Source of the DNA: Antedon mediterranea
Taxonomy: Eukaryota; Animalia; Echinodermata
Assembly (NCBI RefSeq): GCF_964355755.1
Contig: NC_092675.1
Location: forward strand, 27,376,912-27,440,911
Direction: 5' to 3'
DNA length: 64,000 nt
Below the pieces are notes generated by a model, which searched no databases, was not told the origin of the DNA, and worked only from the letters and a program-made list of their open reading frames with translations. Each line of letters opens with the position of its first letter. Position 1 is the stretch's first letter. This document shows positions 15,645 through 42,758 of the stretch, piece after piece. The position numbers were made by a program, and so were the translations under genes.

Positions 15645-15895
15645 ATTCCAGTTGAAGACCAGTTGGGAAATTTCCCTGTTGTGAATTGAGACAATTACCA
15701 GTTGTGAATTTCCCAGTTGTGAATTTTCCAACTGGTCTGATAATCCCAGTTGTAAATTTTACCAGTTGTAAATTTCTCAACTGGTCTGATAATCCCAGTT
15801 GTGAATTTTCCAACTGGTCTGATCAATCCCAGTTGTAAATTTTCCCAGTTGTACATTTTTCCCAGTTGAGAATTTTCCCAACTGGTAAATTTCAG
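15645..15895. repeat. Left subterminal ccagttg/caactgg repeat array
   Basis: About 15 copies of ccagttg(t) in both orientations. Confidence 0.85.
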
Positions 15896-18420: not shown

Positions 18421-18592
18421 CTTCAACTTTCGGGAGCAGCATAACTACAGATGTTTCTCTGCGGCCCGACACGATCTTGACTAAGGTCAACGACGTCAAG
18501 TTTTTCTCAACTTTCGTAAGAGACGTAAGAAACGTATGAAACGCAAGAATCGTTGCAAAATTCGACTTCTTACGTCGACAGGAAACCAGCCT
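18421..18592 (-). mobile_element. Truncated inverted copy of the left end of the adjacent Harbinger-like MITE
   Basis: Reverse complement of 18776-18946, followed by TTA. Confidence 0.8.
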
Positions 18593-18775
18593 TTATTCCT
18601 TATTCGACATTCGTCAATGGAAGTTGGTTCCTTATTCGACGTTCGACATTCGCTAGGCTAGGCCAAAATTTCGAAAATGATAATTTCCCAGCGGTAAATA
18701 TGCCGTGCGCCACCAACCAATCTCCTGCTGTTACTTATTCCCTATTCGACATTCATTCGTGAAGTTGGTTCCTTA

Positions 18776-20248
18776 AGGCTGGTTTCCTGTCGACGTAAGA
18801 AGTCGAATTTTGCAACGATTCTTGCGTTTCATACGTTTCTTACGTCTCTTACGAAAGTTGAGAAAAACTTGACGTCGTTGACCTTAGTCAAGATCGTGTC
18901 GGGCCGCAGAGAAACATCTGTAGTTATGCTGCTCCCGAAAGTTGAAATTTTGGCTGTGAAACACACGTCGTATGCTTACGTCGATTTTAGTGTTGTTACG
19001 AAAGTTGAAATTTTTTTCTTACGTCGGTCGGATTTATGACGTATTTGAAACAACATCTCTGATTGGTGTTTCTTTTTAGAGCGGGTTTTATCATTTTTCG
19101 CGCGAAATGTTGAATGTTCTTATTGTACCTGTAGCTTCTCAGCACCAGTGTCAGTGCAGCACACCAACATGTTATTTTCAGTAGATAGGCTAGGCCCTAG
19201 TATTAGTAAAATACTTAATTAATACTGTACTAATAGGAATTGATTTGACCAAACAATCAAACTAGCCTAGGCCCCTAGCCTAGGCTAGTAGGCCTATGTA
19301 TTATTTGTATGAATCAAAATATGAATTAATTATCCTGGCCCTCTAGGCCTCCTATCCTTAAATAGTTTTCAAAATTAAAAAAAGGCAAATCATTTCGAGA
19401 TTCCTATTATTATTATTAGACCTACCTAGGCCCTAGACTAGGCATTGGCCTATGGGCCTATAAGCATATCTAATCGAGCATGAGATAGTACTACCGCAGT
19501 AAGATACCCATTATTTACAGGCCTATAATAAGAATAAATTTAACAAAACAATATAAATTATACAAAATCAAGCAAACAATTTTTTTTTAAAGTTACATAT
19601 AATATTATATTGCTTACAAAAGGGCTTTCTATATCTTATCTTGTTGCAAATGTTCATTTTCGCGACGTTTCTACCGATGCTGATTGTTTATTGCACGTCC
19701 ATAAATTAAATAAGAGTATTATATTTTGATATGAGTTGTAAACTCCCAGATTAGAAAATTATTAGGCCTATATTGAAACTACTGTGCATTTGTAAAGTAT
19801 GTACAACATCGTAAAGTGGGCTAAAATTATAGTAGTAAATACATACAAATGTTATTGTCCGGCTTTATTTCACTATAAAGACATACACATTACGTCATAA
19901 CTCTTGTCGTTCATTGGTTACTTGTTACGATTGCGCTTACGTCTCTTGCGAAAGTTGACTTCAAGTCAACTTTCGTAAGAGACGTAAGAAACGTGACGCA
20001 AGGGCGTTCATTCAAGCGTAAGATAAAAAATCCCGGTTTCCTGTAAAATCGGAAGAAAATGTCGTAACGCAACAATTGTTAGGTCATCGGTTTCCTGTAA
20101 AATCGTTTGTCGTTACCATTTTTCTTACGTTGCGTCGATTTTATAAATTTTCGATCGTAATCGGTTTCCTGTAAAATCCGCATTTCTTACGACAAATCGA
20201 CGTAGTCGCAACAAAAGTGATGTTCTTACGTCGACAGGAAACCAGCCT
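18776..20248. mobile_element. PIF/Harbinger-like MITE
   Basis: TIR aggctggtttcctgtcgacgtaagaa / ttcttacgtcgacaggaaaccagcct; TSD TTA; an empty-site paralogue gaagttggttccttattcgacgttcg is present at 18620. Confidence 0.85.
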
Positions 20249-20371
20249 TTATTCGACGTTCGCTAGGCCGCGGCCGACCGGCTGGCCCAAATTCGTACCA
20301 AAGTAGACCTAGTGTAGATGTACCTATTTTATCACAGATTTACATTTTTTAGTTCCGATATTACGACAATA

Positions 20372-21311
20372 CCAACGCCTCGGGCCGGGTTCACAATAGC
20401 ATAGATTGACGTAGTATGGTCCTGGAATTCCAGAAATGTGCCACTTGCCCCGACCCAGATCGGGCAAGTACGGATTTTAAAGCAATTTAAAATGCGTATT
20501 TTTAGCATTAATTTAGTAAACACCACTTTTATTAAAGTGGTCATATGACCACACACCGACGCCTCGCGTCGGGTACACAATAGTATAGATTGACGTAGTA
20601 TGGTCCTGGCATTCCAGAAATGTGCCACCTGCCCCGGCCCAGTGCGGGCAAGTACGTGTTTTAAAGCAATTTCAAATGCGTATTTTTAGCAATAATTTAC
20701 TAAGAATTAATAGCACCACTTTTAAAGTGGCCATATGACCACACCACGACGCCTCGGGCCGGGTACACAATAATATAGATTGACGTAGTATGGTCCTGGC
20801 ATTCCAGAAATGTGCCACTTGCCCCGGCCCAGTGCGGGCAAGTACGGGTTTTAAAGCAATTTAAAATGCGTATTTTTAGTGTTATTTTACTAAGTATTAA
20901 TAGCACCACTTTTAAAGTGGCAATATGACCACACCCCGACGTCTCGGGCCGGCCGCCGGGTACACAATAGTATAGATTGACGTAGTATGGTCCTGGCTTT
21001 CCAGAAATGTGCCACTTGCCCCGGCCCAGTGCGGGCAAGTACGGATTTTAAAGCAATTTAAAATGCGTATTTTTGGCATTAATTTAGTAAACACCACATT
21101 TAAAGTGGCCATATGACCACACCCCGACGCCTCGGGCCGGGAACACAATAGTATAGATTGACGTAGTATGGTCCTGGCATTCCAGAAATATGCCACTTGC
21201 CCCGGCCCAGTGCCGGCAAGTACCGTACGGATTTTAAAGCAATTTAAAATGCGTATTTTTAGCATTAATTTAGTAAACACCACTTTTAAAGTGGCCATAT
21301 GACCACACCCC
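20372..21311 (-). repeat. 181/190-bp satellite, block A1 (about 5 units)
   Basis: Tandem units ...ggccatatgaccacaccccgacgcctcgggccggg...; continues in phase at 35114. Confidence 0.95.
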
Positions 21312-21330
21312 AGTAGAGGTAGAGGGAATA

Positions 21331-21575
21331 CAGACCCGAATGGAAGGTCATACCCCCAGGGCAGAAGTATTCCAGGCCCAAATGGAATGTCATACCCCCA
21401 GGGCATATTTCATATTTCTATTGTTTAATTTCCAGGTATTGTAATAATAATTAGTGAAAGGTCATTCTTTGTACCAGACCGGAAAGGAATGTCATATCCC
21501 CAGGGTATATATTATATTTTCTATTGTTTAATTTCCTGTTATTGTAATATTAATTAGCGAAAGGTCATTCTTTGT
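21331..21575 (+). repeat. Subterminal repeats of the palindromic element (mirror at ~34850-35095)
   Basis: Three copies of gaa(t/g)gtcata(c/t)ccccaggg and a ~105-bp duplication ending aaaggtcattctttgt. Confidence 0.75.
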
Positions 21576-21909
21576 TAGAGAAGGGGGTTTGTTATTTTGG
21601 CGGGGTTTTCGTTTTGGCCTGGGTTATAATTGTAGTTGGTGATGAATTTGTATTTTAAATATATTAGTGAAGGTAGTTCTTTGTTTGAGGATTGCTATTG
21701 TTATTTTTAGGCGGTTTGACCATTGCATAGGTCGCCTTTGTTTAGTATATCCTAATTTCTTTTGTTCATTGTTCTTTTTGTTTGGTACAATAGTTTTGTA
21801 TTTGATATTTTAGAGCCGTTTCTTTTTAGACATTGTAAGAAGAGGGACTGCTTTTTGTGACCTTTCCAGTTGTTTCGTCTATTTTTACGTGGAGTTACAG
21901 TATTTCGCT

Positions 21910-22461
21910 ATGTCTGGAAGTATAGATTTTTCGTTAGGTAGCTGTGTAGATACAGTTATAATTATTAGCGATGATGAGGAGACTGTTGTTACAGGTAACG
22001 ATATCGGTGATCGGTACATGCGGACTAATGAGGGTGTACCCGCCGGTGTTGATGAAGGAGTTGAGAGGGGTAGCCGGGCTACAAGTTGTATATTTACGTA
22101 CGTAGATGAGGTGGAGAGAGAATTGTTATTGAAATTGGAATATTTAGCCAGAGAAGTGTTTGTTTCTCAAGTGTTAAACATGTGCTGGATGTTAAGTAAA
22201 GCGGCTTGTTATGGTTGCGAATTTGATAGGCCTGGTCAAAAATATCATGACTTCTGCTGTATGAAATCTCCAGAAGAACAGATTGATTATTTTTATCGGG
22301 AGGTTCTGGATAAAGAGTATGTTACAGACAATACCGTGTATAGTGAGTTGAATAAGTACGAGGAATATTCATTACCACGGTATAGACATTTTGTTTACTT
22401 TCTCGTAAATACCTTGACTAATTCAGAGAACCTGTATAAGTTATTGTGTGAGGATATCTAA
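21910..22461 (+). CDS. 183-aa acidic protein with a CYGCEFDRPGQKYHDFCC Cys/His cluster (putative metal-binding), function unknown
   Basis: Long intact ORF in AT-rich DNA, ATG at 21910, identical in both arms. Confidence 0.7.
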   Translation: MSGSIDFSLGSCVDTVIIISDDEETVVTGNDIGDRYMRTNEGVPAGVDEGVERGSRATSCIFTYVDEVERELLLKLEYLAREVFVSQVLNMCWMLSKAACYGCEFDRPGQKYHDFCCMKSPEEQIDYFYREVLDKEYVTDNTVYSELNKYEEYSLPRYRHFVYFLVNTLTNSENLYKLLCEDI

Positions 22462-22623
22462 AACGTGTTTCGCACGTGCCACGGAAAAACGATTGACCGG
22501 AAAACAAACAATTAACAATGCTTTTAATCCGCACGCGTTGTAGGGAGACAATTGACAGGAAAAACAATTAATATCGCTTTAGGCTAATTACTGTTAAAAG
22601 GCTACTTCCGTACTGAGCTGTTA

Positions 22624-22655
22624 CATATATATCGGACCTGATTCAAACGCAGTTT
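22624..22655 (+). promoter_or_regulatory. Putative TATA box plus CAGT initiator for the PC4-AlkB gene
   Basis: catatatatc, then cagt about 25 nt downstream and 19 nt before the ATG at 22669. Confidence 0.4.
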
Positions 22656-22668
22656 TAAAGTACCAACG

Positions 22669-24367
22669 ATGACTACCTCCTCGAAGTTATTGGATCCTAG
22701 AAAATTTTTCAACGGTCAAACAAACGATTTGAGTAAAGCAGCGAAGCCGTCAACAAGTAAAAAATCATTTCACTCTGCCTCAGGAATTAGCGCCATGGAT
22801 TATGCCGAAATGACCGGTGGTGAACCAAAGATTCCAATAACTTCAACGAATCGGATTTTTCTGTCTGAAAAACGCCATGTAGTGGCCCAGCGCTGGGGTG
22901 AAGTTGTTTATGTATGCCTTAGAGAATGTTATCAAACGGAAGAAAATGGTGCCTTCAAACCTGGACCTCTAGGTATTAATTTACCCGTTCTGCTGTGGCA
23001 AAAACTTTTTACCAATATTGATTTAATTCTTCAAGCCCTAGCCAACTTGCAAAGAGACATTAACTTGGTGGAGGCAGTAAGAATCCCACTTTCGGACATA
23101 CTACATGTGGTAGTTAGTAGCTGGAAAGAAGAGCAGTTTGTATGTATTCGCCATTGTTACCAGGCCGAAGAAGGAGGCGAGTTTAAACCCGGCAAAAAAG
23201 GTATTAACCTTCCAAAGAGACAGTGGTACAAGTTAATTGAACAACACGGTGAAATTCAAAAGATGATTGAAGAGGTTGATAATGATAATGCGGTTACCGT
23301 CGATGGTGGTGGTGACGAAAACGATAACGGAGGACGTTTATTCAATTCAGAGCAACAATTGCTATCCCCTGATTGGTTATCTGTGCAAAAAATAACAGGG
23401 GAAAATTTAGATTGTGATTACCTTCAACTTCTTGATAAAGGAACAGCCGATACATTGTTTAAAAAATGTGAGGAAGAGATTGACTATTTTACCGGTGATC
23501 TTGCAAAGGTGAAAGTGTACGGAAAGTGGTTTAATATTCCTAGAAAACAGGTTAGTTCCATTATTATTTTATCCGTGGTTTTGTATTAATGACTTGTTAA
23601 TTACTTGTAGGCCTATATCGTTTCCTTTGTTTTTCTTTATTTACCGCTGGGTAGATGTGTAATTTACTCTTTTACTGTAAATGATTTTATTAGGGCGTGT
23701 TCATTTACATCTCACCAAATAAGATTCTTAAATTACTATGTAATGTATGGTTTTCCCCTCTGTATGTTTCGTTTGGCGATTCGGGCCTAACTTACAAATA
23801 TTCAGGCAATACAGTACCAGCTTTACCGTGGCCACCATTCCTGAAAGATCTCCGCGATCTTTTAAAAACGGTTACAGGACATTACTTCAATTTTGTCTTG
23901 GTCAATCGGTAAATATTCTTGTTTATTATTTTGTTTGTTTTAATTCTATTGTGCAAGTGTTATTTTACTTACATACATCCCCCCTCCCCCAATGGTTAAT
24001 TGGGTGTTTTTTTTTTAATCTCATGTTAAAATACTTTATTTTCTATTGTATTTTGTCGTTACTCTATAGATATGCTACTGGCAGTGATTACATTGGCGAA
24101 CACAAAGATGATGAAAAAGACATGAATCACTTTAGTCCAATCGCCTCTGTATCATTAGGGCAAACACGTATGTTTAGATTTCGACATGGTGATGCGCGAG
24201 GTAAGAGCCCCAAAAGAATAATTGAGCCAGTAACTGTTGATCTTAAACACGGTACATTATTAATGATGAATTATCCCACTAATGAGTACTGGTACCATTC
24301 ACTGCCTAAAAATCAATCCATCAAGCTACCACGAATAAATCTTACGTTTAGAGATATTAAAAGATGA
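22669..24367 (+). CDS. Spliced 2x PC4-like ssDNA-binding domain / ALKBH2-like AlkB dioxygenase fusion, about 440 aa (exons 22669-23550, 23766[or 23724]-23908, 24070-24367)
   Basis: Two PC4-like repeats (VxxWxxxxYVCLRECY..GAFKPGPLGINLP..W; VSSWKEEQFVCIRHCY..GEFKPGKKGINLPKRQW); AlkB motifs KVYGKWFNIPRKQ, FGDSGLTYKYSG, NFVLVNRY, HKDDE, WYHSLP, RINLTFR; GT donors at 23551 and 23909, AG at 24068-24069. Confidence 0.85.
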
Positions 24368-24504
24368 GAGAAATTTTACGCAAACATTAGGCCTAACAGT
24401 CTTCAATAGTGATTGCAGATCTCAAGAACATCAACTGTTCATGATCTGTTTTCATATAGTGTAGTAGTACAAGTTAGATTACTTTTGTGATGATATTTCT
24501 ACAA

Positions 24505-24705
24505 ATGGTTGTATTATTGTATTGAAGTTAATTCACTTAGATATAGGGCTAATTCCATTGATCGTTAATAATAATGTGATTGTTTGTCATAGTGTGGATA
24601 ATGATTAACTTTACGAAACAAATAGTTGTATTATTGTATTGAAATTCACTTAGATTCCATTGATCGTTAATATTCATGTGATTGTGTCCCATTGTGTGGA
24701 TAAAA
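24505..24705 (+). repeat. Tandem ~120-bp duplication in the 3' region of the AlkB gene
   Basis: gttgtattattgtattgaa...ttccattgatcgttaata...gtgtggataa occurs twice. Confidence 0.7.
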
Positions 24706-26036
24706 ATTAAATAATCTCTTAAAAGTAAATTGTATTGTATTTCTAATTGTTATAAATACATGTAACAGTTTCTTATGTTTGCACGTTTTTCTTTAAAGCG
24801 TTTTAACCGTTTAGTTAGTCATTTCTACTAATTTTAACAGAAAAACAAAAAAACTAGACATTCAACCGGACCCCAAACATTGAAATTTGTTTACAAGCAG
24901 GTTATTTCCATTAGCTATTCTAAGGCCTACTTTTTTTTTCTACATGTTTATTTTTCGACTATTTTTAAAAACTTTTTTTATGAATCTTCTGCTGTTTCGT
25001 TAGCAATTTTACAGGCCTGTGTCTTCGCTCTGTAGGCTTAACCTTATAACGGTTCTTTGTAAATGTTCTCTTATTGATGGTTACCTATAGCTCTCTCACA
25101 TCCCTTAATCTAGCACCATTTTATGAAAGATTCCTCAGTAAGGGGTTTATTACTGACGCTAGGTATCATCGACAGGGAATATTAGACAAAACATGACGTC
25201 ACTATTTTTAAAAGGTTTTCTCATTCAAGAACAGCTGACGTCAATGAAGAATACGTTACAACACGATAACTACCGGACAGCAGCAAAAAACATCAACCAA
25301 TCACAAATCTGAGCTACTAGTTAAATAATAAATAAACGAAACAAAGACAAAAGAAAAGGAAATACACTAAACAAATCATTTTCGTCTCGAAGTTATATTA
25401 ACGTAAATTTTTCCTTCACAAAATCACAGGAGACGCGTTTAACGTTTCCAATCACATTATTCAACTCATCAGGTGTAATATCTTTACACAAATCCTTTAT
25501 ATCTTTACTTGTTTTCTTACCAGCTCATATCAAACATGAATATTACTCTAAAGGATTGATGTACGATAAACCCCCCCCCCCCTTTTTTTTCTTTTTTTTT
25601 AAAGTCTGCATAGCGGCACGAGAAAACAATTGATAATGGAGATAAAAAGTTTGTCTTACATTGTTATACAGTAACCTGTGTTTTTCTTTGTTTACACCAT
25701 CTCATTGTTTATAATTATGTATGTTAATGTCGATAGTGTTTCTCTAGTACAGTTTATTACTTGTTTATACTCGTAAAGTTGGCAGGCCTCCATGTTGTTG
25801 GTATATTTTGTAAAAATTGTATTTATGTTTACTTTTTAAAAATCGTTTTATTTGCATTTTATCTCCTCCTGGTTAAAATGAGTGTGATGTTGCTTAAAAA
25901 GTTAACAAGTATAACCACTAAAACGGTTCAATACCTGTAGGAAATCATCAACATTGTAACATGCTGTAAACAATACAAATTAGTTTCACAAATTATTTAA
26001 ACAATAACACTAACAAATTATTAGAATTTAAGAAAA

Positions 26037-26300
26037 TAAAGGTGTACAGATTTTATTTCGATAAAAAAAGTGTACAAAAATAACTTTACAAAAAATGTAC
26101 AGATTAAATTAACAACAACAAAAAATCACACATTAAACTAATTCTTATAAAGGTGTACAGTGTACATTGGCCACAGACATTCTTAAAACGAGGTGTACAG
26201 CTTTTATTTTAAAAAAAAGTATACAAAAATAATTTTACAAAAAGTGTATAGAATAAATTTACAAAAAAAAGTTCACACATTAAACTAATGCTTATAAAAG
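26037..26300 (+). repeat. Tandem ~150-bp duplication rich in tgtaca
   Basis: ggtgtacag.ttttattt...cacacattaaactaat occurs twice. Confidence 0.7.
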
Positions 26301-27217
26301 TCTACATGTCGATGTGTACATGTAACGTGGCATTACCATTAAGAAACAAATACAAACCAAACACTTAACAGCTAAAACAGCATAGCGATCGTTTTCGTAC
26401 GTAAAACAATACCTCCAGCAGGTATATCAACTTTAGTATTTTAAGTATAGGGCCTACACGCGACAAACACACAAACACCCTCTTGAATTGTAGGTACAGG
26501 CCTTTTGCCGTTCGTAATTCAAACTGTTCGGAAAATTGAAGTTAATATTCTGAGATTAGGCCTATAGTCTATGATTGCATTCTGCCTTCCCTCTCAGGAG
26601 CTTAGACTTGTCAACGGTCTAAAAGAGCTGTAATGCAGGATGCGAAACATAACAGTTTATTAATAAACAGTATATTATAACGATAAAGAAACGAATGTAC
26701 GATACACCAATATAACAGTACAATAACTGATTAACTGAAGACTTGAAGTCTACTGTATTCCTACAATCATTCAAGTAGACATTGTTTGTTGAGTGTATGA
26801 TACTTTCTCCAAAGAGAATTCGAACGATGTGTTTTTCGGACGTGTTTCTACGGTTATCAGAACGGGTCGATAATAATTTTAAAAAATAAAAACAAAAACA
26901 AAACAAAAAACGAACAACCTACTAACTTCCAAAAAATCAATACCCAAATAAGCTGAACCTAACCCACTAATTAATAATCTGTTCCATACATCAAAATCGG
27001 CCGAAAATGATCTGAACATTGAAAAGTGGACACGGTCGTCTGTTCTTCTTTTCTGTTTCCACGGCTTGTGACAGCCTCGTTGGTGATAAAGTCATGCGGT
27101 TTACACACTTATGATGACCATATCGCATAACATGTTCAGGGAACTTATTTTTCAACTCTCTGATACAATGTTTAAATACAAGTGGACTGGAAACCATTTA
27201 GGAATAGGGTTTTCTAA

Positions 27218-27882
27218 TAATAAAAGTTGTGTAAAACTTTAGTTATGGTCAAGGAGAATTGGTAAAGACTTGGAGTAAATGGTCAAAGCCGGTGGCAAAT
27301 GGTCAAGACCGAGAGAAAAATTAATGTACACCATTTTATAAGTTTATAGTCAATTATTGTGTTAACATTCATTTATGAATAAATCTGTATACGTATTCAA
27401 TAATAAAAAGAAGAATAACTTTCTTATGCTTAATATCATGAATAACATATCTTTAGTGGTTAAGGTAATATATTATTTCTCTGTATACTGCCGTCACACA
27501 TATAGATAAAGAGAGACTGTCCATTAATAAAAGTTGTGTAAAACTTTAGTTTTGGTCAAGGGGATTGGTCAAGACTTGAAGTAAATGGTCGAGACTTGGA
27601 GTAAATGGTCGAGACCGGGGGAAAATGGTCAAGACAGGGAGAAAATGATCAAGACAGGGAGAAAATGATCAAGACAGGGAGAAAAATTAATGTATACAAT
27701 TTTATAAGTTTATAGCCACTTATTGTGTTAAATTTCATTTATGATTAAACCTGTATACGTATTCAATAATAAAAAATTAATTTTCCTTCACTTAATATCA
27801 TGAATAACATATCTTTAGTGGTTAAGGTATTATATTATTTCTCTGTATACTGACCTCACAAATATAGATAAAGAGAGACTGT
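27218..27882 (+). repeat. Two ~300-355-bp tandem units containing iterated aaatggtcaagac 20-mers (mirror at 28540-29204)
   Basis: taataaaagttgtgtaaaactttagtt...gataaagagagactgt occurs twice; about 12 (t)ggtcaa/ggtcga/gatcaa motifs at ~20-nt spacing. Confidence 0.85.
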
Positions 27883-28179
27883 AACTAAAGGTTTATTGAT
27901 TATTAGGGTTACAGTGAGAGTTCTATGCAAACATTAAAAGGCCAATTAACGAGCCACCCAACTTAATTAAGTACCGGTACCTAACAAATGCGCTCAAACT
28001 CTATGCAGGTTACAACTCTACAAAAGAGGACATTGTATTTTTAAACTAGGGTTAAACATGAAAAAGGTCAATTACTTGAACTCTGAACATTGGAAAAAGG
28101 GTTGTGTCAATTGACACTTGAACTTTACCTCTAGACAAGGAGGAATGGACAGTTACAATTTACCATTAAACTCTGGTCA

Positions 28180-28242
28180 ACCGTTTTATTGGGGGGCTCT
28201 CAAATTTCGACGAAGTCGAAAATTGAAACTCCCATGCTTTTG
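28180..28242. other. Central imperfect hairpin (palindrome axis) with c(GAA)g triloop
   Basis: tcaaatttcgac-GAA-gtcgaaaattga (28200-28226, one A/A mismatch), partial ggggggc/actccc pairing, unpaired flanks. Confidence 0.9.
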
Positions 28243-31200
28243 TGACCAGAGTTTAATGGTAAATTGTAACTGTCCATTCCTCCTTGTCTAGAGGTAAAGT
28301 TCAAGTGTCAATTGACACAACCCTTTTTCCAATGTTCAGAGTTCAAGTAATTGACCTTTTTCATGTTTAACCCTAGTTTAAAAATACAATGTCCTCTTTT
28401 GTAGAGTTGTAACCTGCATAGAGTTTGAGCGCATTTGTTAGGTACCGGTACTTAATTAAGTTGGGTGGCTCGTTAATTGGCCTTTTAATGTTTGCATAGA
28501 ACTCTCACTGTAACCCTAATAATCAATAAACCTTTAGTTACAGTCTCTCTTTATCTATATTTGTGAGGTCAGTATACAGAGAAATAATATAATACCTTAA
28601 CCACTAAAGATATGTTATTCATGATATTAAGTGAAGGAAAATTAATTTTTTATTATTGAATACGTATACAGGTTTAATCATAAATGAAATTTAACACAAT
28701 AAGTGGCTATAAACTTATAAAATTGTATACATTAATTTTTCTCCCTGTCTTGATCATTTTCTCCCTGTCTTGATCATTTTCTCCCTGTCTTGACCATTTT
28801 CCCCCGGTCTCGACCATTTACTCCAAGTCTCGACCATTTACTTCAAGTCTTGACCAATCCCCTTGACCAAAACTAAAGTTTTACACAACTTTTATTAATG
28901 GACAGTCTCTCTTTATCTATATGTGTGACGGCAGTATACAGAGAAATAATATATTACCTTAACCACTAAAGATATGTTATTCATGATATTAAGCATAAGA
29001 AAGTTATTCTTCTTTTTATTATTGAATACGTATACAGATTTATTCATAAATGAATGTTAACACAATAATTGACTATAAACTTATAAAATGGTGTACATTA
29101 ATTTTTCTCTCGGTCTTGACCATTTGCCACCGGCTTTGACCATTTACTCCAAGTCTTTACCAATTCTCCTTGACCATAACTAAAGTTTTACACAACTTTT
29201 ATTATTAGAAAACCCTATTCCTAAATGGTTTCCAGTCCACTTGTATTTAAACATTGTATCAGAGAGTTGAAAAATAAGTTCCCTGAACATGTTATGCGAT
29301 ATGGTCATCATAAGTGTGTAAACCGCATGACTTTATCACCAACGAGGCTGTCACAAGCCGTGGAAACAGAAAAGAAGAACAGACGACCGTGTCCACTTTT
29401 CAATGTTCAGATCATTTTCGGCCGATTTTGATGTATGGAACAGATTATTAATTAGTGGGTTAGGTTCAGCTTATTTGGGTATTGATTTTTTGGAAGTTAG
29501 TAGGTTGTTCGTTTTTTGTTTTGTTTTTGTTTTTATTTTTTAAAATTATTATCGACCCGTTCTGATAACCGTAGAAACACGTCCGAAAAACACATCGTTC
29601 GAATTCTCTTTGGAGAAAGTATCATACACTCAACAAACAATGTCTACTTGAATGATTGTAGGAATACAGTAGACTTCAAGTCTTCAGTTAATCAGTTATT
29701 GTACTGTTATATTGGTGTATCGTACATTCGTTTCTTTATCGTTATAATATACTGTTTATTAATAAACTGTTATGTTTCGCATCCTGCATTACAGCTCTTT
29801 TAGACCGTTGACAAGTCTAAGCTCCTGAGAGGGAAGGCAGAATGCAATCATAGACTATAGGCCTAATCTCAGAATATTAACTTCAATTTTCCGAACAGTT
29901 TGAATTACGAACGGCAAAAGGCCTGTACCTACAATTCAAGAGGGTGTTTGTGTGTTTGTCGCGTGTAGGCCCTATACTTAAAATACTAAAGTTGATATAC
30001 CTGCTGGAGGTATTGTTTTACGTACGAAAACGATCGCTATGCTGTTTTAGCTGTTAAGTGTTTGGTTTGTATTTGTTTCTTAATGGTAATGCCACGTTAC
30101 ATGTACACATCGACATGTAGACTTTTATAAGCATTAGTTTAATGTGTGAACTTTTTTTTGTAAATTTATTCTATACACTTTTTGTAAAATTATTTTTGTA
30201 TACTTTTTTTTAAAATAAAAGCTGTACACCTCGTTTTAAGAATGTCTGTGGCCAATGTACACTGTACACCTTTATAAGAATTAGTTTAATGTGTGATTTT
30301 TTGTTGTTGTTAATTTATTCTGTACATTTTTTGTAAAGTTATTTTTGTACACTTTTTTTATCGAAATAAAATCTGTACACCTTTATTTTCTTAAATTCTA
30401 ATAATTTGTTAGTGTTATTGTTTAAATAATTTGTGAAACTAATTTGTATTGTTTACAGCATGTTACAATGTTGATGATTTCCTACAGGTATTGAACCGTT
30501 TTAGTGGTTATACTTGTTAACTTTTTAAGCAACATCACACTCATTTTAACCAGGAGGAGATAAAATGCAAATAAAACGATTTTTAAAAAGTAAACATAAA
30601 TACAATTTTTACAAAATATACCAACAACATGGAGGCCTGCCAACTTTACGAGTATAAACAAGTAATAAACTGTACTAGAGAAACACTATCGACATTAACA
30701 TACATAATTATAAACAATGAGATGGTGTAAACAAAGAAAAACACAGGTTACTGTATAACAATGTAAGACAAACTTTTTATCTCCATTATCAATTGTTTTC
30801 TTGTGCCGCTATGCAGACTTTAAAAAAAAAGAAAAAAAGGGGGGGGGGGGTTTATCGTACATCAATCCTTTAGAGTAATATTCATGTTTGATATGAGCTG
30901 GTAAGAAAACAAGTAAAGATATAAAGGATTTGTGTAAAGATATTACACCTGATGAGTTGAATAATGTGATTGGAAACGTTAAACGCGTCTCCTGTGATTT
31001 TGTGAAGGAAAAATTTACGTTAATATAACTTCGAGACGAAAATGATTTGTTTAGTGTATTTCCTTTTCTTTTGTCTTTGTTTCGTTTATTTATTATTTAA
31101 CTAGTAGCTCAGATTTGTGATTGGTTGATGTTTTTTGCTGCTGTCCGGTAGTTATCGTGTTGTAACGTATTTTTCATTGACGTCAGCTGTTCTTGAATGA

Positions 31201-32058
31201 GAAAACCTTTTAAAAATAGTGACGTCATGTTTTGTCTAATATTCCCTGTCGATGATACCTAGCGTCAGTAATAAACCCCTTACTGAGGAATCTTTCATAA
31301 AATGGTGCTAGATTAAGGGATGTGAGAGAGCTATAGGTAACCATCAATAAGAGAACATTTACAAAGAACCGTTATAAGGTTAAGCCTACAGAGCGAAGAC
31401 ACAGGCCTGTAAAATTGCTAACGAAACAGCAGAAGATTCATAAAAAAAGTTTTTAAAAATAGTCGAAAAATAAACATGTAGAAAAAAAAAGTAGGCCTTA
31501 GAATAGCTAATGGAAATAACCTGCTTGTAAACAAATTTCAATGTTTGGGGTCCGGTTGAATGTCTAGTTTTTTTGTTTTTCTGTTAAAATTAGTAGAAAT
31601 GACTAACTAAACGGTTAAAACGCTTTAAAGAAAAACGTGCAAACATAAGAAACTGTTACATGTATTTATAACAATTAGAAATACAATACAATTTACTTTT
31701 AAGAGATTATTTAATTTTTATCCACACAATGGGACACAATCACATGAATATTAACGATCAATGGAATCTAAGTGAATTTCAATACAATAATACAACTATT
31801 TGTTTCGTAAAGTTAATCATTATCCACACTATGACAAACAATCACATTATTATTAACGATCAATGGAATTAGCCCTATATCTAAGTGAATTAACTTCAAT
31901 ACAATAATACAACCATTTGTAGAAATATCATCACAAAAGTAATCTAACTTGTACTACTACACTATATGAAAACAGATCATGAACAGTTGATGTTCTTGAG
32001 ATCTGCAATCACTATTGAATTGAAGACTGTTAGGCCTAATGTTTGCGTAAAATTTCTC

Positions 32059-33757
32059 TCATCTTTTAATATCTCTAAACGTAAGATTTATTCTTGGTAG
32101 CTTGATGGATTGATTTTTAGGCAGTGAATGGTACCAGTACTCATTAGTGGGATAATTCATCATTAATAATGTACCGTGTTTAAGATCAACAGTTACTGGC
32201 TCAATTATTCTTTTGGGGCTCTTACCTCGCGCATCACCATGTCGAAATCTAAACATACGTGTTTGCCCTAATGATACAGAGGCGATTGGACTAAAGTGAT
32301 TCATGTCTTTTTCATCATCTTTGTGTTCGCCAATGTAATCACTGCCAGTAGCATATCTATAGAGTAACGACAAAATACAATAGAAAATAAAGTATTTTAA
32401 CATGAGATTAAAAAAAAAACACCCAATTAACCATTGGGGGAGGGGGGATGTATGTAAGTAAAATAACACTTGCACAATAGAATTAAAACAAACAAAATAA
32501 TAAACAAGAATATTTACCGATTGACCAAGACAAAATTGAAGTAATTCCCTGTAACCGTTTTTAAAAGATCGCGGAGATCTTTCAGGAATGGTGGCCACGG
32601 TAAAGCTGGTACTGTATTGCCTGAATATTTGTAAGTTAGGCCCGAATCGCCAAACGAAACATACAGAGGGGAAAACCATACATTACATAGTAATTTAAGA
32701 ATCTTATTTGGTGAGATGTAAATGAACACGCCCTAATAAAATCATTTACAGTAAAAGAGTAAATTACACATCTACCCAGCGGTAAATAAAGAAAAACAAA
32801 GGAAACGATATAGGCCTACAAGTAATTAACAAGTCATTAATACAAAACCACGGATAAAATAATAATGGAACTAACCTGTTTTCTAGGAATATTAAACCAC
32901 TTTCCGTACACTTTCACCTTTGCAAGATCACCGGTAAAATAGTCAATCTCTTCCTCACATTTTTTAAACAATGTATCGGCTGTTCCTTTATCAAGAAGTT
33001 GAAGGTAATCACAATCTAAATTTTCCCCTGTTATTTTTTGCACAGATAACCAATCAGGGGATAGCAATTGTTGCTCTGAATTGAATAAACGTCCTCCGTT
33101 ATCGTTTTCGTCACCACCACCATCGACGGTAACCGCATTATCATTATCAACCTCTTCAATCATCTTTTGAATTTCACCGTGTTGTTCAATTAACTTGTAC
33201 CACTGTCTCTTTGGAAGGTTTATACCTTTTTTGCCGGGTTTAAACTCGCCTCCTTCTTCGGCCTGGTAACAATGGCGAATACATACAAACTGCTCTTCTT
33301 TCCAGCTACTAACTACCACATGTAGTATGTCCGAAAGTGGGATTCTTACTGCCTCCACCAAGTTAATGTCTCTTTGCAAGTTGGCTAGGGCTTGAAGAAT
33401 TAAATCAATATTGGTAAAAAGTTTTTGCCACAGCAGAACGGGTAAATTAATACCTAGAGGTCCAGGTTTGAAGGCACCATTTTCTTCCGTTTGATAACAT
33501 TCTCTAAGGCATACATAAACAACTTCACCCCAGCGCTGGGCCACTACATGGCGTTTTTCAGACAGAAAAATCCGATTCGTTGAAGTTATTGGAATCTTTG
33601 GTTCACCACCGGTCATTTCGGCATAATCCATGGCGCTAATTCCTGAGGCAGAGTGAAATGATTTTTTACTTGTTGACGGCTTCGCTGCTTTACTCAAATC
33701 GTTTGTTTGACCGTTGAAAAATTTTCTAGGATCCAATAACTTCGAGGAGGTAGTCAT
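32059..33757 (-). CDS. Mirror copy of the PC4-PC4-AlkB fusion (exons 33757-32876, 32660-32518, 32356-32059)
   Basis: Inverted copy; differs by one H>N change in exon 2 and two synonymous changes. Confidence 0.85.
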
Positions 33758-33963
33758 CGTTGGTACTTTAAAACTGCGTTTGAATCAGGTCCGATATATA
33801 TGTAACAGCTCAGTACGGAAGTAGCCTTTTAACAGTAATTAGCCTAAAGCGATATTAATTGTTTTTCCTGTCAATTGTCTCCCTACAACGCGTGCGGATT
33901 AAAGCATTGTTAATTGTTTGTTTTCCGGTCAATCGTTTTTCCGTGGCACGTGCGAAACACGTT

Positions 33964-34515
33964 TTAGATATCCTCACACAATAACTTATACAGGTTCTCT
34001 GAATTAGTCAAGGTATTTACGAGAAAGTAAACAAAATGTCTATACCGTGGTAATGAATATTCCTCGTACTTATTCAACTCACTATACACGGTATTGTCTG
34101 TAACATACTCTTTATCCAGAACCTCCCGATAAAAATAATCAATCTGTTCTTCTGGAGATTTCATACAGCAGAAGTCATGATATTTTTGACCAGGCCTATC
34201 AAATTCGCAACCATAACAAGCCGCTTTACTTAACATCCAGCACATGTTTAACACTTGAGAAACAAACACTTCTCTGGCTAAATATTCCAATTTCAATAAC
34301 AATTCTCTCTCCACCTCATCTACGTACGTAAATATACAACTTGTAGCCCGGCTACCCCTCTCAACTCCTTCATCAACACCGGCGGGTACACCCTCATTAG
34401 TCCGCATGTACCGATCACCGATATCGTTACCTGTAACAACAGTCTCCTCATCATCGCTAATAATTATAACTGTATCTACACAGCTACCTAACGAAAAATC
34501 TATACTTCCAGACAT
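33964..34515 (-). CDS. Mirror copy of the 183-aa Cys/His-motif ORF
   Basis: Identical translation in the ORF track. Confidence 0.7.
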   Translation of the reverse strand: MSGSIDFSLGSCVDTVIIISDDEETVVTGNDIGDRYMRTNEGVPAGVDEGVERGSRATSCIFTYVDEVERELLLKLEYLAREVFVSQVLNMCWMLSKAACYGCEFDRPGQKYHDFCCMKSPEEQIDYFYREVLDKEYVTDNTVYSELNKYEEYSLPRYRHFVYFLVNTLTNSENLYKLLCEDI

Positions 34516-35113
34516 AGCGAAATACTGTAACTCCACGTAAAAATAGACGAAACAACTGGAAAGGTCACAAAAAGCAGTCCCTCTTCTTACAATGTCTAAA
34601 AAGAAACGGCTCTAAAATATCAAATACAAAACTATTGTACCAAACAAAAAGAACAATGAACAAAAGAAATTAGGATATACTAAACAAAGGCGACCTATGC
34701 AATGGTCAAACCGCCTAAAAATAACAATAGCAATCCTCAAACAAAGAACTACCTTCACTAATATATTTAAAATACAAATTCATCACCAACTACAATTATA
34801 ACCCAGGCCAAAACGAAAACCCCGCCAAAATAACAAACCCCCTTCTCTAACAAAGAATGACCTTTCGCTAATTAATATTACAATAACAGGAAATTAAACA
34901 ATAGAAAATATAATATATACCCTGGGGATATGACATTCCTTTCCGGTCTGGTACAAAGAATGACCTTTCACTAATTATTATTACAATACCTGGAAATTAA
35001 ACAATAGAAATATGAAATATGCCCTGGGGGTATGACATTCCATTTGGGCCTGGAATACTTCTGCCCTGGGGGTATGACCTTCCATTCGGGTCTGTATTCC
35101 CTCTACCTCTACT

Positions 35114-38100
35114 CACCCCGACGCCTCGGGCCGGGTACACAATAGTATAGATTGACGTAGTATGGTCCTGACTTTCCAGAAATGTGCCACTTGCCCCGGC
35201 CCAGTGCGGGAAAGTACGTGTTTAAAAGCAATTTCAAATGCGTATTTTTAGCATTAATTTACTAAGAATTAATAGCACCACTTTTAAAGTGGCCATATGA
35301 CCACACCCCAACGCCTCGGGCCGGGAACACAATAGTATAGATTGACGTAGAATGGTCCTGGCATTCCAGAAATGTGCCACTTGCCCCGGCCCAGTGCGGG
35401 CAAGTACTGATTTTAAAGCAATTTCAAATGCGTATTTTTAGAATTAATTTACTAAGAATTAATAGCACCACATTTAAAGTGGCCATATGACCACACCCCG
35501 ACGCCTCGGGCCGGGAACACAATAGTATAGATTGACGTAGTATGGTCCTGGCATTCCAGAAATATACCACTTGCCCCGGCCCAGTGCCGGCAAGTACGGA
35601 TTTTAAAGCAATTTAAATGCGTATTTTTAGCATTAATTTAGTAAACACCACTTTTAAAGTGGCCATATGACCACACCCCGACGCCTCGGGCCGGGTACAC
35701 AATAGTATAGATTGACGTAGTATGGTCCTGACTTTCCAGAAATGTGCCACTTGCCCCGGCCCAGTGCGGGAATTACGTGTTTAAAAGCAATTTCAAATGC
35801 GTATTTTTAGCATTAATTTACTAAGAATTAATAGCACCACTTTTAAAGTGGCCATATGACCACACCCCAACGCCTCGGGCCGGGAACACAATAGTATAGA
35901 TTGACGTAGAATGGTCCTGGCATTCCAGAAATGTGCCACTTGCCCCGGCCCAGTGCGGGCAAGTACGGATTTTAAAGCAATTTAAAATGCGTATTTTTAG
36001 CATTAATTTAGTAAACACCACTTTTAAAGTGGCCATATGACCACACCCCGACGCGTCGGGCCGGGTACACAATAGTATAGATTGACTTAGTATGGTCCTG
36101 GCTTTCCAGAAATGTGCCACTTGCCCCGGCCCAGTGCGGGCAACTACGTGTTTAAAAGCAATTTCAAATGCGTTTTTTAGCATTAATTTACTAAGAATTA
36201 ATAGCACCACATTTAAAGTGGCCATATGACCACACCCCGACGCCTCGGGCCGGGAACACAATAGTATAGATTGACGTAGTATGGTCCTGGCATTCCAGAA
36301 ATATACCACTTGCCCCGGCCCAGTGCCGGCAAGTACGGATTTTAAAGCAATTTAAAATGCGTATTTTTAGCATTAATTTAGTAAACACCACTTTTAAAGT
36401 GGCCATATGACCACACCCCGACGCCTCGGGCCGGGTACACAATAGTATAGATTGACGTAGTATGGTCCTGACTTTCCAGAAATGTGCCACTTGCCCCGGC
36501 CCAGTGCGGGAATTACGTGTTTAAAAGCAATTTCAAATGCGTATTTTTAGCATTGATTTACTAAGAATTAATAGCACCACTTTTAAAGTGGCCACATGAC
36601 CACACCCCAACGCCTCGGGCCGGGAACACAATAGTATAGATTGACGTAGAATGGTCCGGACATTCCAGAAATGTGCCACTTGCCCCGGCCCAGTGCGGGC
36701 AAGTACGTGTTTTAAAGCAATTTAAAATGCGTGTTTTTAGTGTTATTTTACTAAGTATTAATAGCACCACTTTTAAAGTGGCAATATGACCACACCCCGA
36801 CGCCTCGGGCCGGATTCACAATAGTATAGATTGACGTAGTATGGTCCTGACTTTCCAGAAATGTGCCACTTGCCCCGGCCCAGTGCGGGCAAGTACGTGT
36901 TTAAAAGCAATTTCAAATGCGTATTTTTAGTGTTATTTTACTAAGTATTAATAGCACCACTTTTAAAGTGGCCATATGACCACACCCCGACGCCTCGGGC
37001 CGGGTACACAATAATATAGGTTGACGTAGTATGGTCCTGACTTTCCAGAAATGTGCCACTTGCCCCGGCCCAGTGCGGGAATTACGTGTTTAAAAGCAAT
37101 TTCAAATGCGTATTTTTAGCATTAATTTACTAAGAATTAATAGCACCACTTTTAAAGTGGCCATATGACCACACCCCAACGCCTCGGGCCGGATTCACAA
37201 TAGTATAGATTGACGTAGTATGGTCCTGACTTTCCAGAAATGTGCCACTTGCCCCGGCCCAGTGCGGGAATTACGTGTTTAAAAGCAATTTCAAATGCGT
37301 ATTTTTAGCATTAATTTACTAAGAATTAATAGCACCACTTTTAAAGTGGCCATATGACCACACCCCAACGCCTCGGGCCGGGAACACAATAGTATAGATT
37401 GACGTAGAATGGTCCTGGCATTCCAGAAATGTGCCACTTGCCCCGGCCCAGTGCGGGCAAGTACGGATTTTAAAGCAATTTAAAATGCGTATTTTTAGCA
37501 TTAATTTAGTAAACACCACTTTTAAAGTGGCCATATGACCACACCCCGACGCGTCGGGCCGGGTACACAATAGTATAGATTGACTTAGTATGGTCCTGGC
37601 TTTCCAGAAATGTGCCACTTGCCCCGGCCCAGTGCGGGCAACTACGTGTTTAAAAGCAATTTCAAATGCGTTTTTTAGCATTAATTTACTAAGAATTAAT
37701 AGCACCACATTTAAAGTGGCCATATGACCACACCCCGACGCCTCGGGCCGGGAACACAATAGTATAGATTGACGTAGTATGGTCCTGGCATTCCAGAAAT
37801 ATACCACTTGCCCCGGCCCAGTGCCGGCAAGTACGGATTTTAAAGCAATTTAAAATGCGTATTTTTAGCATTAATTTAGTAAACACCACTTTTAAAGTGG
37901 CCATATGACCACACCCCGACGCCTCGGGCCGGGTACACAATAGTATAGATTGACGTAGTATGGTCCTGACTTTCCAGAAATGTGCCACTTGCCCCGGCCC
38001 AGTGCGGGAATTACGTGTTTAAAAGCAATTTCAAATGCGTATTTTTAGCATTAATTTACTAAGAATTAATAGCACCACTTTTAAAGTGGCCATATGACCA

Positions 38101-39860
38101 CACCCCAACGCCTCGGGCCGGGAACACAATAGTATAGATTGACGTAGAATGGTCGGACATTCCAGAAATGTGCCACTTGCCCCGGCCCAGTGCGGGCAAG
38201 TACGTGTTTTAAAGCAATTTAAAATGCGTGTTTTTAGTGTTATTTTACTAAGTATTAATAGCACCACTTTTAAAGTGGCAATATGACCACACCCCGACGC
38301 CTCGGGCCGGGTACATAATAGTATGGATTGACGTAGAAAGGTCCAGACTTTCTAGAAATGTGCCACTTGCCCCGGCCCAGTGCGGGCCAGTACGTGTTTT
38401 AAAGCAATTTAAAATGCGTATTTTTAGTGTTATTTTACTAAGTATTAATAGCACCACTTTTAAAGTGGCCATATGACCACACCCCGACGCCTCGGGCCGG
38501 GTACACAATAGTATAGATTGACGCAGTATGGTCCTGGCTTTCCAGAAATGTGCCACTTGCCCCGGCCCAGTGCGGGCAAGTACGGATTTTAAAGCAATTT
38601 AAAATGCGTATTTTTAGCATTAATTTAGTAAACACCACTTTTAAAGTGGCCATATGACCACACCCCGACGCCTCGGGTTGGGTTCACAATAGTATAGATT
38701 GATGTAGAATGGTCCTGGCATTCCATAAACGTGCCACTTGCCCCGGCCCAGTGCGGGCAAGTACATGTTTGAAAGCAATTTCAACTGCGTATTTTTAGCA
38801 TTAATTTACTAAGAATTAATAGCACCACATTTAAAGTGGCCATATGACCACACCCCGACGCCTCGGGCCGGGAACACAATAGTATAGATTAACGTAGTAT
38901 GGTCCTGGCATTCCAGAAATATGCCACTTGCCCCGGCCCAGTGCGGGCAAGTACGGATTTTAAAGCAATTTAAAATGCGTATTTTTAGTGTTATTTTACT
39001 AAGTATTAATAGCACCACTTTTAAAGTGGCAATATGACCACACCCCCGACGCCTCGGGCCGGGTTCACAATAGTATGGATTGACGTAGAAAGGTCCAGAC
39101 TTTCTAGAAATGTGCCACTTGCTCCGGCCCAGTGCGGGCCAGTACGTGTTTTAAAGCAATTTAAAATGCGTATTTTTAGTGTTATTTTACTAAGTATTAA
39201 TAGCACCACTTTTAAAGTGGCCATATGACCACACCCCGACGCCTCGGGCCGGGTACACAATAGTATAGATTGACGCAGTATGGTCCTGGCTTTCCAGAAA
39301 TGTGCCACTTGCCCCGGCCCAGTGCGGGCAAGTACGGATTTTAAAGCAATTTAAAATGCGTATTTTTAGCATTAATTTAGTAAACACCACTTTTAAAGTG
39401 GCCATATGACCACACCCCGACGCCTTGGGTCGGGTTCACAATAGTATAGATTGTTGATGTAGAATGGTCCTGGCATTCCATAAACGTGCCACTTGCCCCG
39501 GCCCAGTGCGGGCAAGTACGTGTTTAAAAGCAATTTAAAATGCGTATATTTAGTGTTTTTTTTACTAAGTATTAACAGCACTACTTTTAAAGTGGCAATA
39601 TGACCACACCCCGACGCCTCGCGCCGGGTTCACAATAGTATGGATTGACGTACGTAGAATGGTCCTGAAATTCCAGAAATGTGCCACTTGCCCCGGACCA
39701 GTGCGGGCAAGTACGTGTTTTAAAGCTATTTAAAATGCGTATTTTTAGCATTAATTTAGTAAACGCCACTTTTAAAGTGGCCATATGACCACACCCCGAC
39801 GCCTCGGGCCGGGTACACAATAGTATAGATTGACGTAGTATGGTCCTGACTTTCCAGAAA
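35114..39860 (-). repeat. 181/190-bp satellite, block A2 (about 25 units, with higher-order repeats)
   Basis: Unit spacing 190 and 180/181 nt; identical ORF pairs 1498 nt apart (35821/37319) and 752 nt apart (38438/39190). Confidence 0.95.
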
Positions 39861-39869
39861 CACTTTAAA

Positions 39870-41377
39870 GTGCTTTAAAACACGTACTTGCCCGCACTGG
39901 GCCGGGGCAAGTGGCACATTTATGGAATGCCAGGACCATACTACGTCAATCTATACTATTGTGAACCCGGCCCGAGGCGTCGGGGTGTGGTCATATTGCC
40001 ACTTTAAAAGTGGTGCTATTAATACTTAGTAAAAAACACTAAAAATACGCATTTTAAATTGCTTTAAAACACGTACTCGCCCGCACCAGGCCGGGGCAAG
40101 TGGTACATTTCTGGAATGCCAGGACCATACTACGTCAATCTATACTATCGTGAACCCGACCCGAGGCGTCGGTGTGTGGTCATAATGGCCAGTTTAAAAG
40201 TGGTGTTTACTAAATTAATGCTAAAAATACGCATTTTAAATTGCTATAAAATCCGTACTTGCCCGCACTGGGCCGGGGCAAGTGGAACATTTCTGGAATG
40301 CCAGGATCATACTACGTCAATCTATATTATTGTGTACCCGGCCCGAGGCGTCGGGGTGTGGTCATATGGCCACTTTAAATGTGGTGCTATTAATTCTTAG
40401 TAAATTAATGCTAAAAATACGCATTTTAAATTGCTTTAAAACACGTACTTGCCAACACTGGGCCGGGGCAAGTGGCACATTTATGGAATGCCAGGACCAT
40501 TCTACATCAATCTATACTATTGTGAACCCGACCCGGGGCGTCGGGGTGTGGTCATATGGCCACTTTAAAAGTGGTGTTTACTAAATTAATGCTAAAAATA
40601 CGCATTTTAAATTGCTTTAAAATCCGTACTTGCCCGCACTGGGCCGGGGCAAGTGGCACATTTCTGGAAAGCCAGGACACTACTACGTCAATCTATACTA
40701 TTGTGTACCCGACCTGAGGCGTTGGGGTGTGGTCATACGGCCACTTTAAAAGTGGTGCTATTATAATACTTAGTAAAATAACACTAAAAAGACGCATTTT
40801 AAATTGCTTTAAAACCCCTACTTGCCCACACTGGGCCGGGGCAAGTGGCACATTTCTGGAATGCCAGGACCATACTACGTCAATCTATACTATTGTGTAC
40901 CCGGTCCGAGGCGTCGGGGTGTGGTCATATGGCCACTTTAAAAGTTGTGTTTACTAAAAATGCTAAAAATACGCATTTTATATTGCTTTAAAATCCGTAC
41001 TTGCCCGCACTGGGCCGGGGCAAGTGGCATATTTCTGGAATGCCAGGACAGTACTACGTCAATCTATACTATTGTGTACCAGGCCCGAGGGGCCGGGGTG
41101 TGGTCATATTATGGCCACTTTAAATGTGGTGCTATTAATTCTTAGTAAATTAATGCTAAAAATACGCATTTGAAATTGCTTTTAAATACGTACTTGCCCG
41201 CACTGGGCCGGGGCAAGTGGCACATTTCTGGAAAGCCAGGACCATACTACGTCAATCTATACTATTGTGTACCCGGCCCGAGGCGTCGGGGTGTGGTCAT
41301 ATTGCCACTTTAAAAGTGGTGCTTTTAATACTTAGTAAAATAACACTAAAAATACGCATTTTAAATTGCTTTAAAAC
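39870..41377 (+). repeat. 181/190-bp satellite, block B1 (about 8 units, opposite orientation)
   Basis: Reverse-complement units begin after cactttaaagtg. Confidence 0.95.
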
Positions 41378-42747: not shown

Positions 42748-42758
42748 TGGATCGCCGG

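Follow-up and report, generated by a model that had tools for sequence, protein, structure and literature searches.

A gene that joins two PC4 repeats to an ALKBH2-type demethylase, proposed in a first-pass annotation, was confirmed in a 64,000-nucleotide stretch of Antedon mediterranea DNA (hereafter the window), where it is present twice, in mirror image, within a 13,802-bp palindromic element. Judged from its sequence relationships, the enzyme part is ALKBH2 by descent, and its AlkB domain is of crinoid origin.

Structure and origin of the fusion gene

The open reading frame at 22669-23550 (294 aa) constitutes exon 1 and contains both PC4 stretches, the acidic linker and the N-terminal part of AlkB as far as PRKQ (its first ~70 residues), so that the join between PC4 and AlkB is independent of splicing. 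The gene is laid out as follows:

22669..23550, plus strand: exon 1 (N-terminal tail, two PC4 repeats, acidic linker, start of ALKBH2 to PRKQ)
22846..23064, plus strand: PC4 repeat 1, with PGPLG in place of the usually invariant lysine pair
23077..23280, plus strand: PC4 repeat 2, with PGKKG retained
23278..23331, plus strand: acidic linker, ending in DENDNG
23335..23550, plus strand: start of the ALKBH2-derived part, aligned to non-fused Antedon proteins from RLFNSEQQ on
23551..23765, plus strand: intron 1, 215 nt, with a GT donor and, in each arm, a 3' end that is non-canonical
23766..23908, plus strand: exon 2, ALKBH2 lid and start of the core
23909..24069, plus strand: intron 2, canonical GT-AG
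24070..24367, plus strand: exon 3, with HxD, the distal His and RxxxxxR
32059..33757, minus strand: arm 2 copy of the fusion gene, in mirror image

The domains of the first-pass annotation were all recovered. The two PC4-like repeats matched PF02229 over two stretches in a profile search (E 1.6e-22); the acidic linker lies at 23278-23331, with DNDNAVT at 23278 and DENDNG at 23314-23331; and the AlkB domain, said to have intact HxD...H and RxxxxxR motifs, matched PF13532 on exon 3 (E 1.7e-19), with all ligands located (HxD at 24101-24109, the distal His in YHSL at 24293-24304, and RxxxxxR as RINLTFR at 24332-24352). The coding part of the arm 2 copy differs from that of arm 1 by three silent and one residue-changing difference. 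Because the window copy carries four private substitutions relative to the RefSeq model P0009, the ALKBH2 and PC4 structure searches described below, which used P0009, refer to a protein that differs from it at 4 residues.

Intron 1 lacks a canonical 3' dinucleotide in both arms, and the window copy is therefore probably mis-spliced and decaying, with function presumably left to intact family members. Two upstream AG sites stay in frame (23693, adding 24 residues, and 23723, adding 14), with the additions falling inside the lid, and the remaining six listed AG sites run into a stop. A single contig from run X5 joins 23550 to 23766, exactly removing intron 1, which weakly indicates a spliced exon 1-exon 2 join, given that its short side is 22 letters, that the same run also covers introns and that none of the listed runs is recorded as RNA.

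The suggestion that the repeats form a single-chain PC4 pseudo-dimer agrees with their predicted fold. An AlphaFold2 model of the two repeats (50-sequence alignment; pLDDT 96.7, pTM 0.89) contains two four-strand-plus-helix units in one chain, matching the bbbba-linker-bbbba arrangement by which a type I PC4-like domain, as described in PMC7549692, forms one domain from one chain. Each half of the model superposes on PC4 (rmsd 1.1-2.0), the whole superposes on Pur-alpha I-II, itself single-chain (Z 12.6, 127 residues, rmsd 4.0), and PC4/MoSub1 were nearest in the search of solved structures. The model thus points to one Pur-alpha-like single-chain pseudo-dimer, a predicted binder of single-stranded DNA (ssDNA). 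It resembles Pur-alpha repeats I-II (PDB 3k44; PMC7549692) in this pseudo-dimeric bbbba-linker-bbbba chain, but differs in that its repeats have PC4/Sub1 rather than PUR family sequence and are joined to an enzyme. The basic PGKKG loop is present in repeat 2 and replaced by PGPLG in repeat 1, which has lost a lysine kept by at least 90% of the alignment; one binding channel may be weakened by this loss.

Among viral models, only MOSUB of a Branchiostoma lancelet adintovirus (UniProt A0A5H3CIS2) matched with E <0.001 (E 1.6e-6, TM 0.81 over both repeats). MOSUB shares the tandem PC4 fold over both repeats and a gene position near the element end, and the supplement map of PMC8502044 places it beside an ITR. 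Unlike the fusion, it is 203 aa long and has no AlkB, and it belongs to a Polinton with ordinary ITRs in which genes for PolB, integrase and capsid are present (PMC8502044).

A protein search of 1.84 billion representatives returned 159 matches, 150 of them listed. PC4 was found in 147 of the 148 listed matches other than Antedon fusion models, and about 126 of the 148 (counted by hand) have two to four repeats, so that tandem PC4 is common and not itself new; an AlkB domain was found in none of these 148. The closest listed relatives of the PC4 part are stand-alone crinoid proteins, Anneissia P0023 (two repeats), P0056, P0061 and P0067. The DENDNG tail is common to several stand-alone crinoid PC4 proteins, and the fusion junction falls directly after it, at the point where similarity to non-fused Antedon ALKBH2 starts. 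No match to the Anneissia tandem PC4 was found among the metagenome and viral contigs scanned. Other architectures were seen in passing, including PC4 joined to an integrase core in Mytilus (P0159) and Z-alpha (Z-DNA-binding) domains with tandem PC4, some also with DEK_C, in unnamed proteins (P0106, P0115, P0129, P0149).

For the enzyme part, the nearest solved structure to P0009 was human ALKBH2 (E 6.5e-72), followed by ALKBH3 (4e-23). Residues were numbered through horse ALKBH2 anchored on H171, and their roles were taken from the same source (PMC10060643). On this numbering the fusion keeps H171, D173, H236, R248, N250, R254, Y122, D174, E175, R198, G204 and K205, among them the HxD...H iron triad, the R-x-N...R 2-oxoglutarate residues and the DNA-binding R198, G204 and K205. 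All Fe/2OG ligands and pocket residues are thus shared with human ALKBH2 (PDB 3rzg, 3s57, 3btx; PF13532), from which the fusion differs in its N-terminus of two PC4 repeats, in having Tyr for F102 and F124, in being multi-copy and mobile, and in reading NQS at the dsDNA-contacting RKK motif (241-243), a site occupied by three basic residues in 94 of 118 homologues. RKK is also missing from non-fused crinoid ALKBH2 (SQS and KPS in Antedon), so its loss is a trait of the lineage rather than something the element evolved. The MD[KR]F.. start of many homologues, which we take to be the N-terminal PCNA-binding motif of ALKBH2, is missing in the fusion and likewise in the annotated starts of the crinoid host proteins. 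P0006/P0021 have a PIP-box-like QQMISPYF that has eroded in the fusion; as only 2 of 119 homologues show it, it is a weak hint.

In the AlkB tree, the element sequences form a clade (100/97) within crinoid ALKBH2 (100/99 and 100/100), and this nesting, together with the structure match, bears out the ALKBH2 identity assigned at first reading. Alternatives for the exact host donor or sister were not separated (AU p 0.42 and 0.46). Antedon has two non-fused ALKBH2 types, P0006/P0021 and P0178/P0294, the former being a near-identical adjacent pair. Mytilus P0177 was set aside, as its high score came only from repeated AlkB exons. A run X7 contig at 23383-23557 has a loose 5' end that reads as non-fused P0006-type (QMISPYFKFP) and appears to be covered about five times as deeply as the fused types (1,500 versus 280, depth not being copy number), and a contig that departs from the window 7 nt into intron 1 hints at the same intron in a non-fused gene. 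The P0006-type ALKBH2 may be a mobile gene in its own right and represent a stage that preceded the fusion.

The palindromic element, its centre and its ends

The element and its insertion site comprise the following features:

20279..21305, plus strand: 190-bp satellite, left flank, the host target
21306..21311, plus strand: left target-site duplication (TSD), CACCCC, 6 bp, inside the 190-bp satellite
21312..35113, strandless: whole element, 13,802-bp palindrome, 5'-AGTAGA...TCTACT-3'
21913..22461, plus strand: upstream ORF of 182 aa, acidic at the N-terminus and containing a CxxC...H..C motif, a putative accessory gene; its mirror copy, on the minus strand, ends at 34512
28171..28251, strandless: conserved centre, with a 63-nt imperfect spacer at 28180-28242
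35114..35119, plus strand: right TSD, CACCCC, 6 bp
35120..39860, plus strand: 190-bp satellite, right flank, in the same orientation as the left flank

Each arm is 6.9 kb long, and each fusion gene starts about 1.4 kb from the element end. With one duplicate taken out, the empty site is present exactly 14 times within the satellite of the window. Together with the 6-bp TSD, the termini and the 17 RefSeq models of the fusion on 7 chromosomes, these empty sites support carriage of the fusion by a mobile element, as had been proposed. The arms are 99.6% identical, as would be expected if fold-back long reads had produced the palindrome as an assembly artefact; this is very improbable, since 7 substitutions and 4 indels distinguish the arms beyond the 63-nt spacer, an exact TSD surrounds the whole, and independent runs contain the centre with mirrored arms of different sequence, which contradicts an artefact.

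In four of four runs, every one of the 30 bins of 21330-27250 has contig coverage. The centre is covered by contigs in three of four runs, and X11 yielded no contig there, which does not show that it lacks the centre. In X1 and X6, which come from two organisms, the 81-nt centre has at most 6 differences, and its flanks are exact reverse complements of each other and diverge from the arm in the window at about 5 of 23 positions (by eye); in X5 the right end is as in X1 and X6 and the left arm is shortened (by eye). The presence of the centre with different yet mirrored flanks indicates that palindromy is an inherited trait of the family, re-made in each lineage. For the spacer, folding gives a hairpin with mismatches, a 7-bp stem and a GAA loop, a signal that is modest by itself (z -2.4 and -2.1; 5 and 9 of 200 shuffles equally good). 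The centre motif matched none of the metagenome and viral contigs scanned, and Rfam gave 0 matches in 20000-36000. Adjoining the centre, at 27257-27882 and its mirror 28540-29165, are 20-bp tandem repeats and a 366-bp duplication, which resemble repeats beside the hairpin ends of linear DNA replicons.

A 6-bp TSD and (AGT)2 or (AG)3 ends mark Polintons/Mavericks (PMC8097293, PMC3014272), and the element has a 6-bp TSD and terminal inverted repeats (its 6.9-kb arms), with an end hexamer, AGTAGA//TCTACT, one base off the commonest published (AGT)2//(ACT)2, the published motifs being vertebrate. Its AG...CT ends and its size (within 12.7-24.6 kb) are likewise those of Polintons (PMC8097293, PMC3014272, PMC6431247), from which it differs in its lack of core genes, its hairpin-like conserved centre, its intron-bearing cargo and an inverted repeat that makes up the whole element, compared with 46-1,447 bp in vertebrate Mavericks (PMC8097293). 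Polintons that carry cargo are known, and gene-bearing TIRs of ~2 kb are described in butterflies (bioRxiv 10.1101/2025.02.07.637071).

An ORF survey and Pfam searches found no polymerase, integrase, ATPase or capsid gene in the element or the window, and no protease gene in the element. For one arm, 78 of 101 frames of at least 32 aa were scanned against profiles, with a single spurious match below the cut-off; the other 23 overlap the fusion gene or the upstream ORF, which were scanned separately. The element is accordingly non-autonomous and is not classed as an autonomous Polinton, its Polinton link consisting of the ends, the TSD and one accessory gene (tandem PC4). Based on these features, it likely works like a non-autonomous Polinton derivative. 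From the Polinton-type ends and PC4 gene we infer protein-primed replication, with a pPolB that would come from outside the element. The missing Polinton core gene and the short tandem repeats inside the element near the centre would also fit a foldback-type DNA transposon with another integrase or transposase and no protein priming, whose PC4-AlkB protein would protect an extruded hairpin or cruciform. This origin is very unlikely, because the 6-bp TSD, the AG...CT ends and a tandem-PC4 gene with a Polinton gene as its best viral fold match all oppose it, and Ginger elements are described with 4-5-bp TSDs and TGT ends (PMC2836005).

The upstream ORF had no homologue among 35 candidates, no Pfam match above the cut-off and no PHROG match; its resemblance to the sea-cucumber WW-PC4-PC4 protein P0137 was non-significant (E 0.19), and its predicted fold was unusable (pLDDT 38.5). 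The label 'Oncoid' was not applied, as no LxCxE was seen. It contains VIIISDDEE, which we take to be SUMO-interaction-like, and a CYGC...H..C motif; a similar CxGC...SQ..H motif occurs in P0137. Most of its listed variants are silent or conservative when double changes are read together. On the minus strand, short protein-like frames at 25396-25701 and 26622-26918 gave no Pfam or PHROG match and may be decayed accessory genes.

Elsewhere in the window, the GC-rich 190-bp satellite occupies 20279-21311, 35114-41400 and 45022-47373, with a 181/190 alternation and a 370-bp higher order; its orientation flips at about 39860, and a further inverted satellite array ends in 20-bp CCAGTTG repeats similar to those at 15698-15892. 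These arrays may belong to a further foldback-like element or be a favoured target. Between them, on the minus strand at 41746-42795, is a 350-aa ORF with zinc knuckles and weak Pfam matches, like a non-LTR retrotransposon ORF1. The window also contains reverse-transcriptase fragments of a decayed LINE (768-1040, RVT_1 E 0.0017, and 2280-2522), MITE-like elements (18422-18946, with perfect 172-bp inverted repeats, 52772-52974 and 63006-63084), a 944-bp dispersed repeat with TA-like ends (5987-6924 and 48317-49260, 98% identical) and an immunoglobulin-domain exon of a host gene (62533-62817, minus strand; Ig_3 E 6e-9).

Copies, probable capture and signs of selection in Antedon

The exon 1 search found 8 proteins among 843 candidates, and their clusters comprise 17 distinct models on 7 chromosome-scale Antedon mediterranea contigs, 96-99% identical at best. 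Three same-chromosome pairs, with 0-1 differences in each, account for six of the 17, and two more sequences have two accessions each, as mirrored copies might; 11 of the 17 are without a same-chromosome twin. Both repeats and the whole AlkB are kept in 7 of the 17 models, and about half are truncated or deleted. With the full-length query, 471 proteins passed 1e-30, and both domains occurred in 3 of the 120 listed, all from Antedon (lengths 242-770). The architecture, which the first-pass annotation could not place in any cellular gene, was indeed absent outside Antedon among the matches listed.

A comparison of two subfamilies bears on whether the copies evolve neutrally, and in it AlkB is better conserved than PC4. 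Between the subfamilies, AlkB is identical at 197-200 of 203 residues, compared with 65-68 of 76 and 55-57 of 69 for the PC4 repeats and 25 of 49 for the N-terminal tail. Contigs of the second subfamily have the middle of intron 2 replaced, yet the flanking exons remain 97-98% identical in protein. Among the 40 variant rows listed (a further 377 exist), 14 are coding, and all four in the AlkB core are silent, whereas 8 of the 10 upstream change a residue. The subfamily conservation, the silent variants and the replaced intron 2 middle together favor purifying selection on the enzyme; the upstream residue changes and the lost lysine pair of repeat 1 limit this case to the AlkB part. Every catalytic residue is kept at 16% divergence from the nearest non-fused gene, and the introns kept in the AlkB part suggest that capture took place as DNA.

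These data also bear on the possibility that ALKBH2 was captured by chance and hitch-hikes as cargo, its conservation reflecting a recent sweep or gene conversion between subfamilies. The broken half of the RefSeq models, the non-canonical acceptor and private substitutions of the window copy, and the confinement of the fusion to one genus would fit such an account, but we consider it unlikely, given the exons conserved around a replaced intron middle, the silence of four of four listed AlkB-exon variants and the catalytic residues that are all kept after such divergence. Somewhat less probable still is amplification for the benefit of the host, in which the fusion would act on host DNA, at transcription bubbles or on 3-methylcytosine (3-meC) made by methyltransferases, and the element would multiply it. 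3-meC can arise as a by-product of DNA methyltransferases. ALKBH2 repairs both double- and single-stranded DNA (PMC10060643), and PC4 proteins are described as acting in transcription and repair. Yet the copies look like those of a transposon, being polymorphic, mirrored and frequently broken, and non-fused ALKBH2 genes persist in Antedon. Moreover, the CpG ratio of the arm is 0.88, compared with ~0.6 in flanking DNA, and with the arm not CpG-depleted, heavy methylation of the element is not evident.

Proposed mechanism, known relatives and meaning

On balance, we lean toward an explanation in which a helper-copied palindromic element carries the fusion twice and the PC4 pseudo-dimer holds the demethylase on single-stranded or bubbled replication intermediates. 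A tandem-PC4 gene would have been borne by the element near its terminus, as in the lancelet adintovirus, and would have gained a genomic, intron-bearing crinoid ALKBH2 just after its DENDNG tail, in place of the host N-terminus. A helper Polinton would supply polymerase and integrase. After displacement from one end, a strand would fold at the centre to give a 6.9-kb hairpin with an origin once more at its open end; replication through this hairpin would produce the mirrored duplex that integrates. Such fold-back copying would keep the two arms of each lineage identical while lineages differ. With the pseudo-dimer in place of the host's targeting region, ALKBH2 would be kept at strands of the element or helper that are displaced or bubbled, and would reverse 1-methyladenine (1-meA) and 3-meC there. 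Both lesions form readily on such strands and block polymerases, and purifying selection may keep AlkB because blocking lesions on exposed strands would cost element or helper copies. Against this explanation, a palindromic strand would snap back fast and leave little long-lived ssDNA; in addition, neither the element nor the window has core genes, no helper was seen, and about half of the models are broken.

A parallel to such copying is found in hairpin deletion derivatives of protein-primed linear plasmids and in snap-back defective viral genomes, in which an origin end is mirrored around a fold-back and copied by a helper; the Antedon element differs in that it sits in an animal genome as a TSD-flanked insertion and brings its own repair gene. 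Virus-borne AlkB (giant viruses, PF13532; PMC10598087) offers another, a selfish replicon with a captured AlkB-family demethylase; the available text of that paper mentions no PC4 fusion, and the Antedon capture is recent, from an animal host and with introns kept. Our literature search found no paper joining PC4, AlkB and Polinton; one match for Maverick, Polinton and PC4 was discarded because PC4 there meant principal component. Nor did it find a wholly palindromic Polinton; the search covered literature other than RepBase and the early Polinton papers, where an earlier description is possible. The parts are thus known (AlkB capture, polinton cargo, tandem PC4), and their PC4-AlkB combination in a palindromic element is new in the searches made.

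More tentatively, and with less confidence than in the mechanism itself, we suggest that feather stars have a family of Polinton satellites with a hairpin at the centre. These would be linear replicons, protein-primed at one end and with a conserved fold-back at the other, which would integrate as perfect mirror dimers and would have a self-built, ssDNA-targeted repair enzyme made from a viral PC4 single-strand-binding gene and a freshly captured host ALKBH2. A virus-like element would here be caught, at a recent and datable stage, adapting a host repair gene to its own use through a swap of the targeting module, with the donor gene types (stand-alone crinoid PC4 and non-fused ALKBH2) still visible. 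The fusion protein is also a natural test of whether tethering makes ALKBH2, which prefers double-stranded DNA, an ssDNA enzyme. To our knowledge, Polinton replication has never been directly observed; the family-wide palindrome with its conserved hairpin centre may be a footprint of it, on which a fold-back strand-displacement model could be tested in natural DNA.
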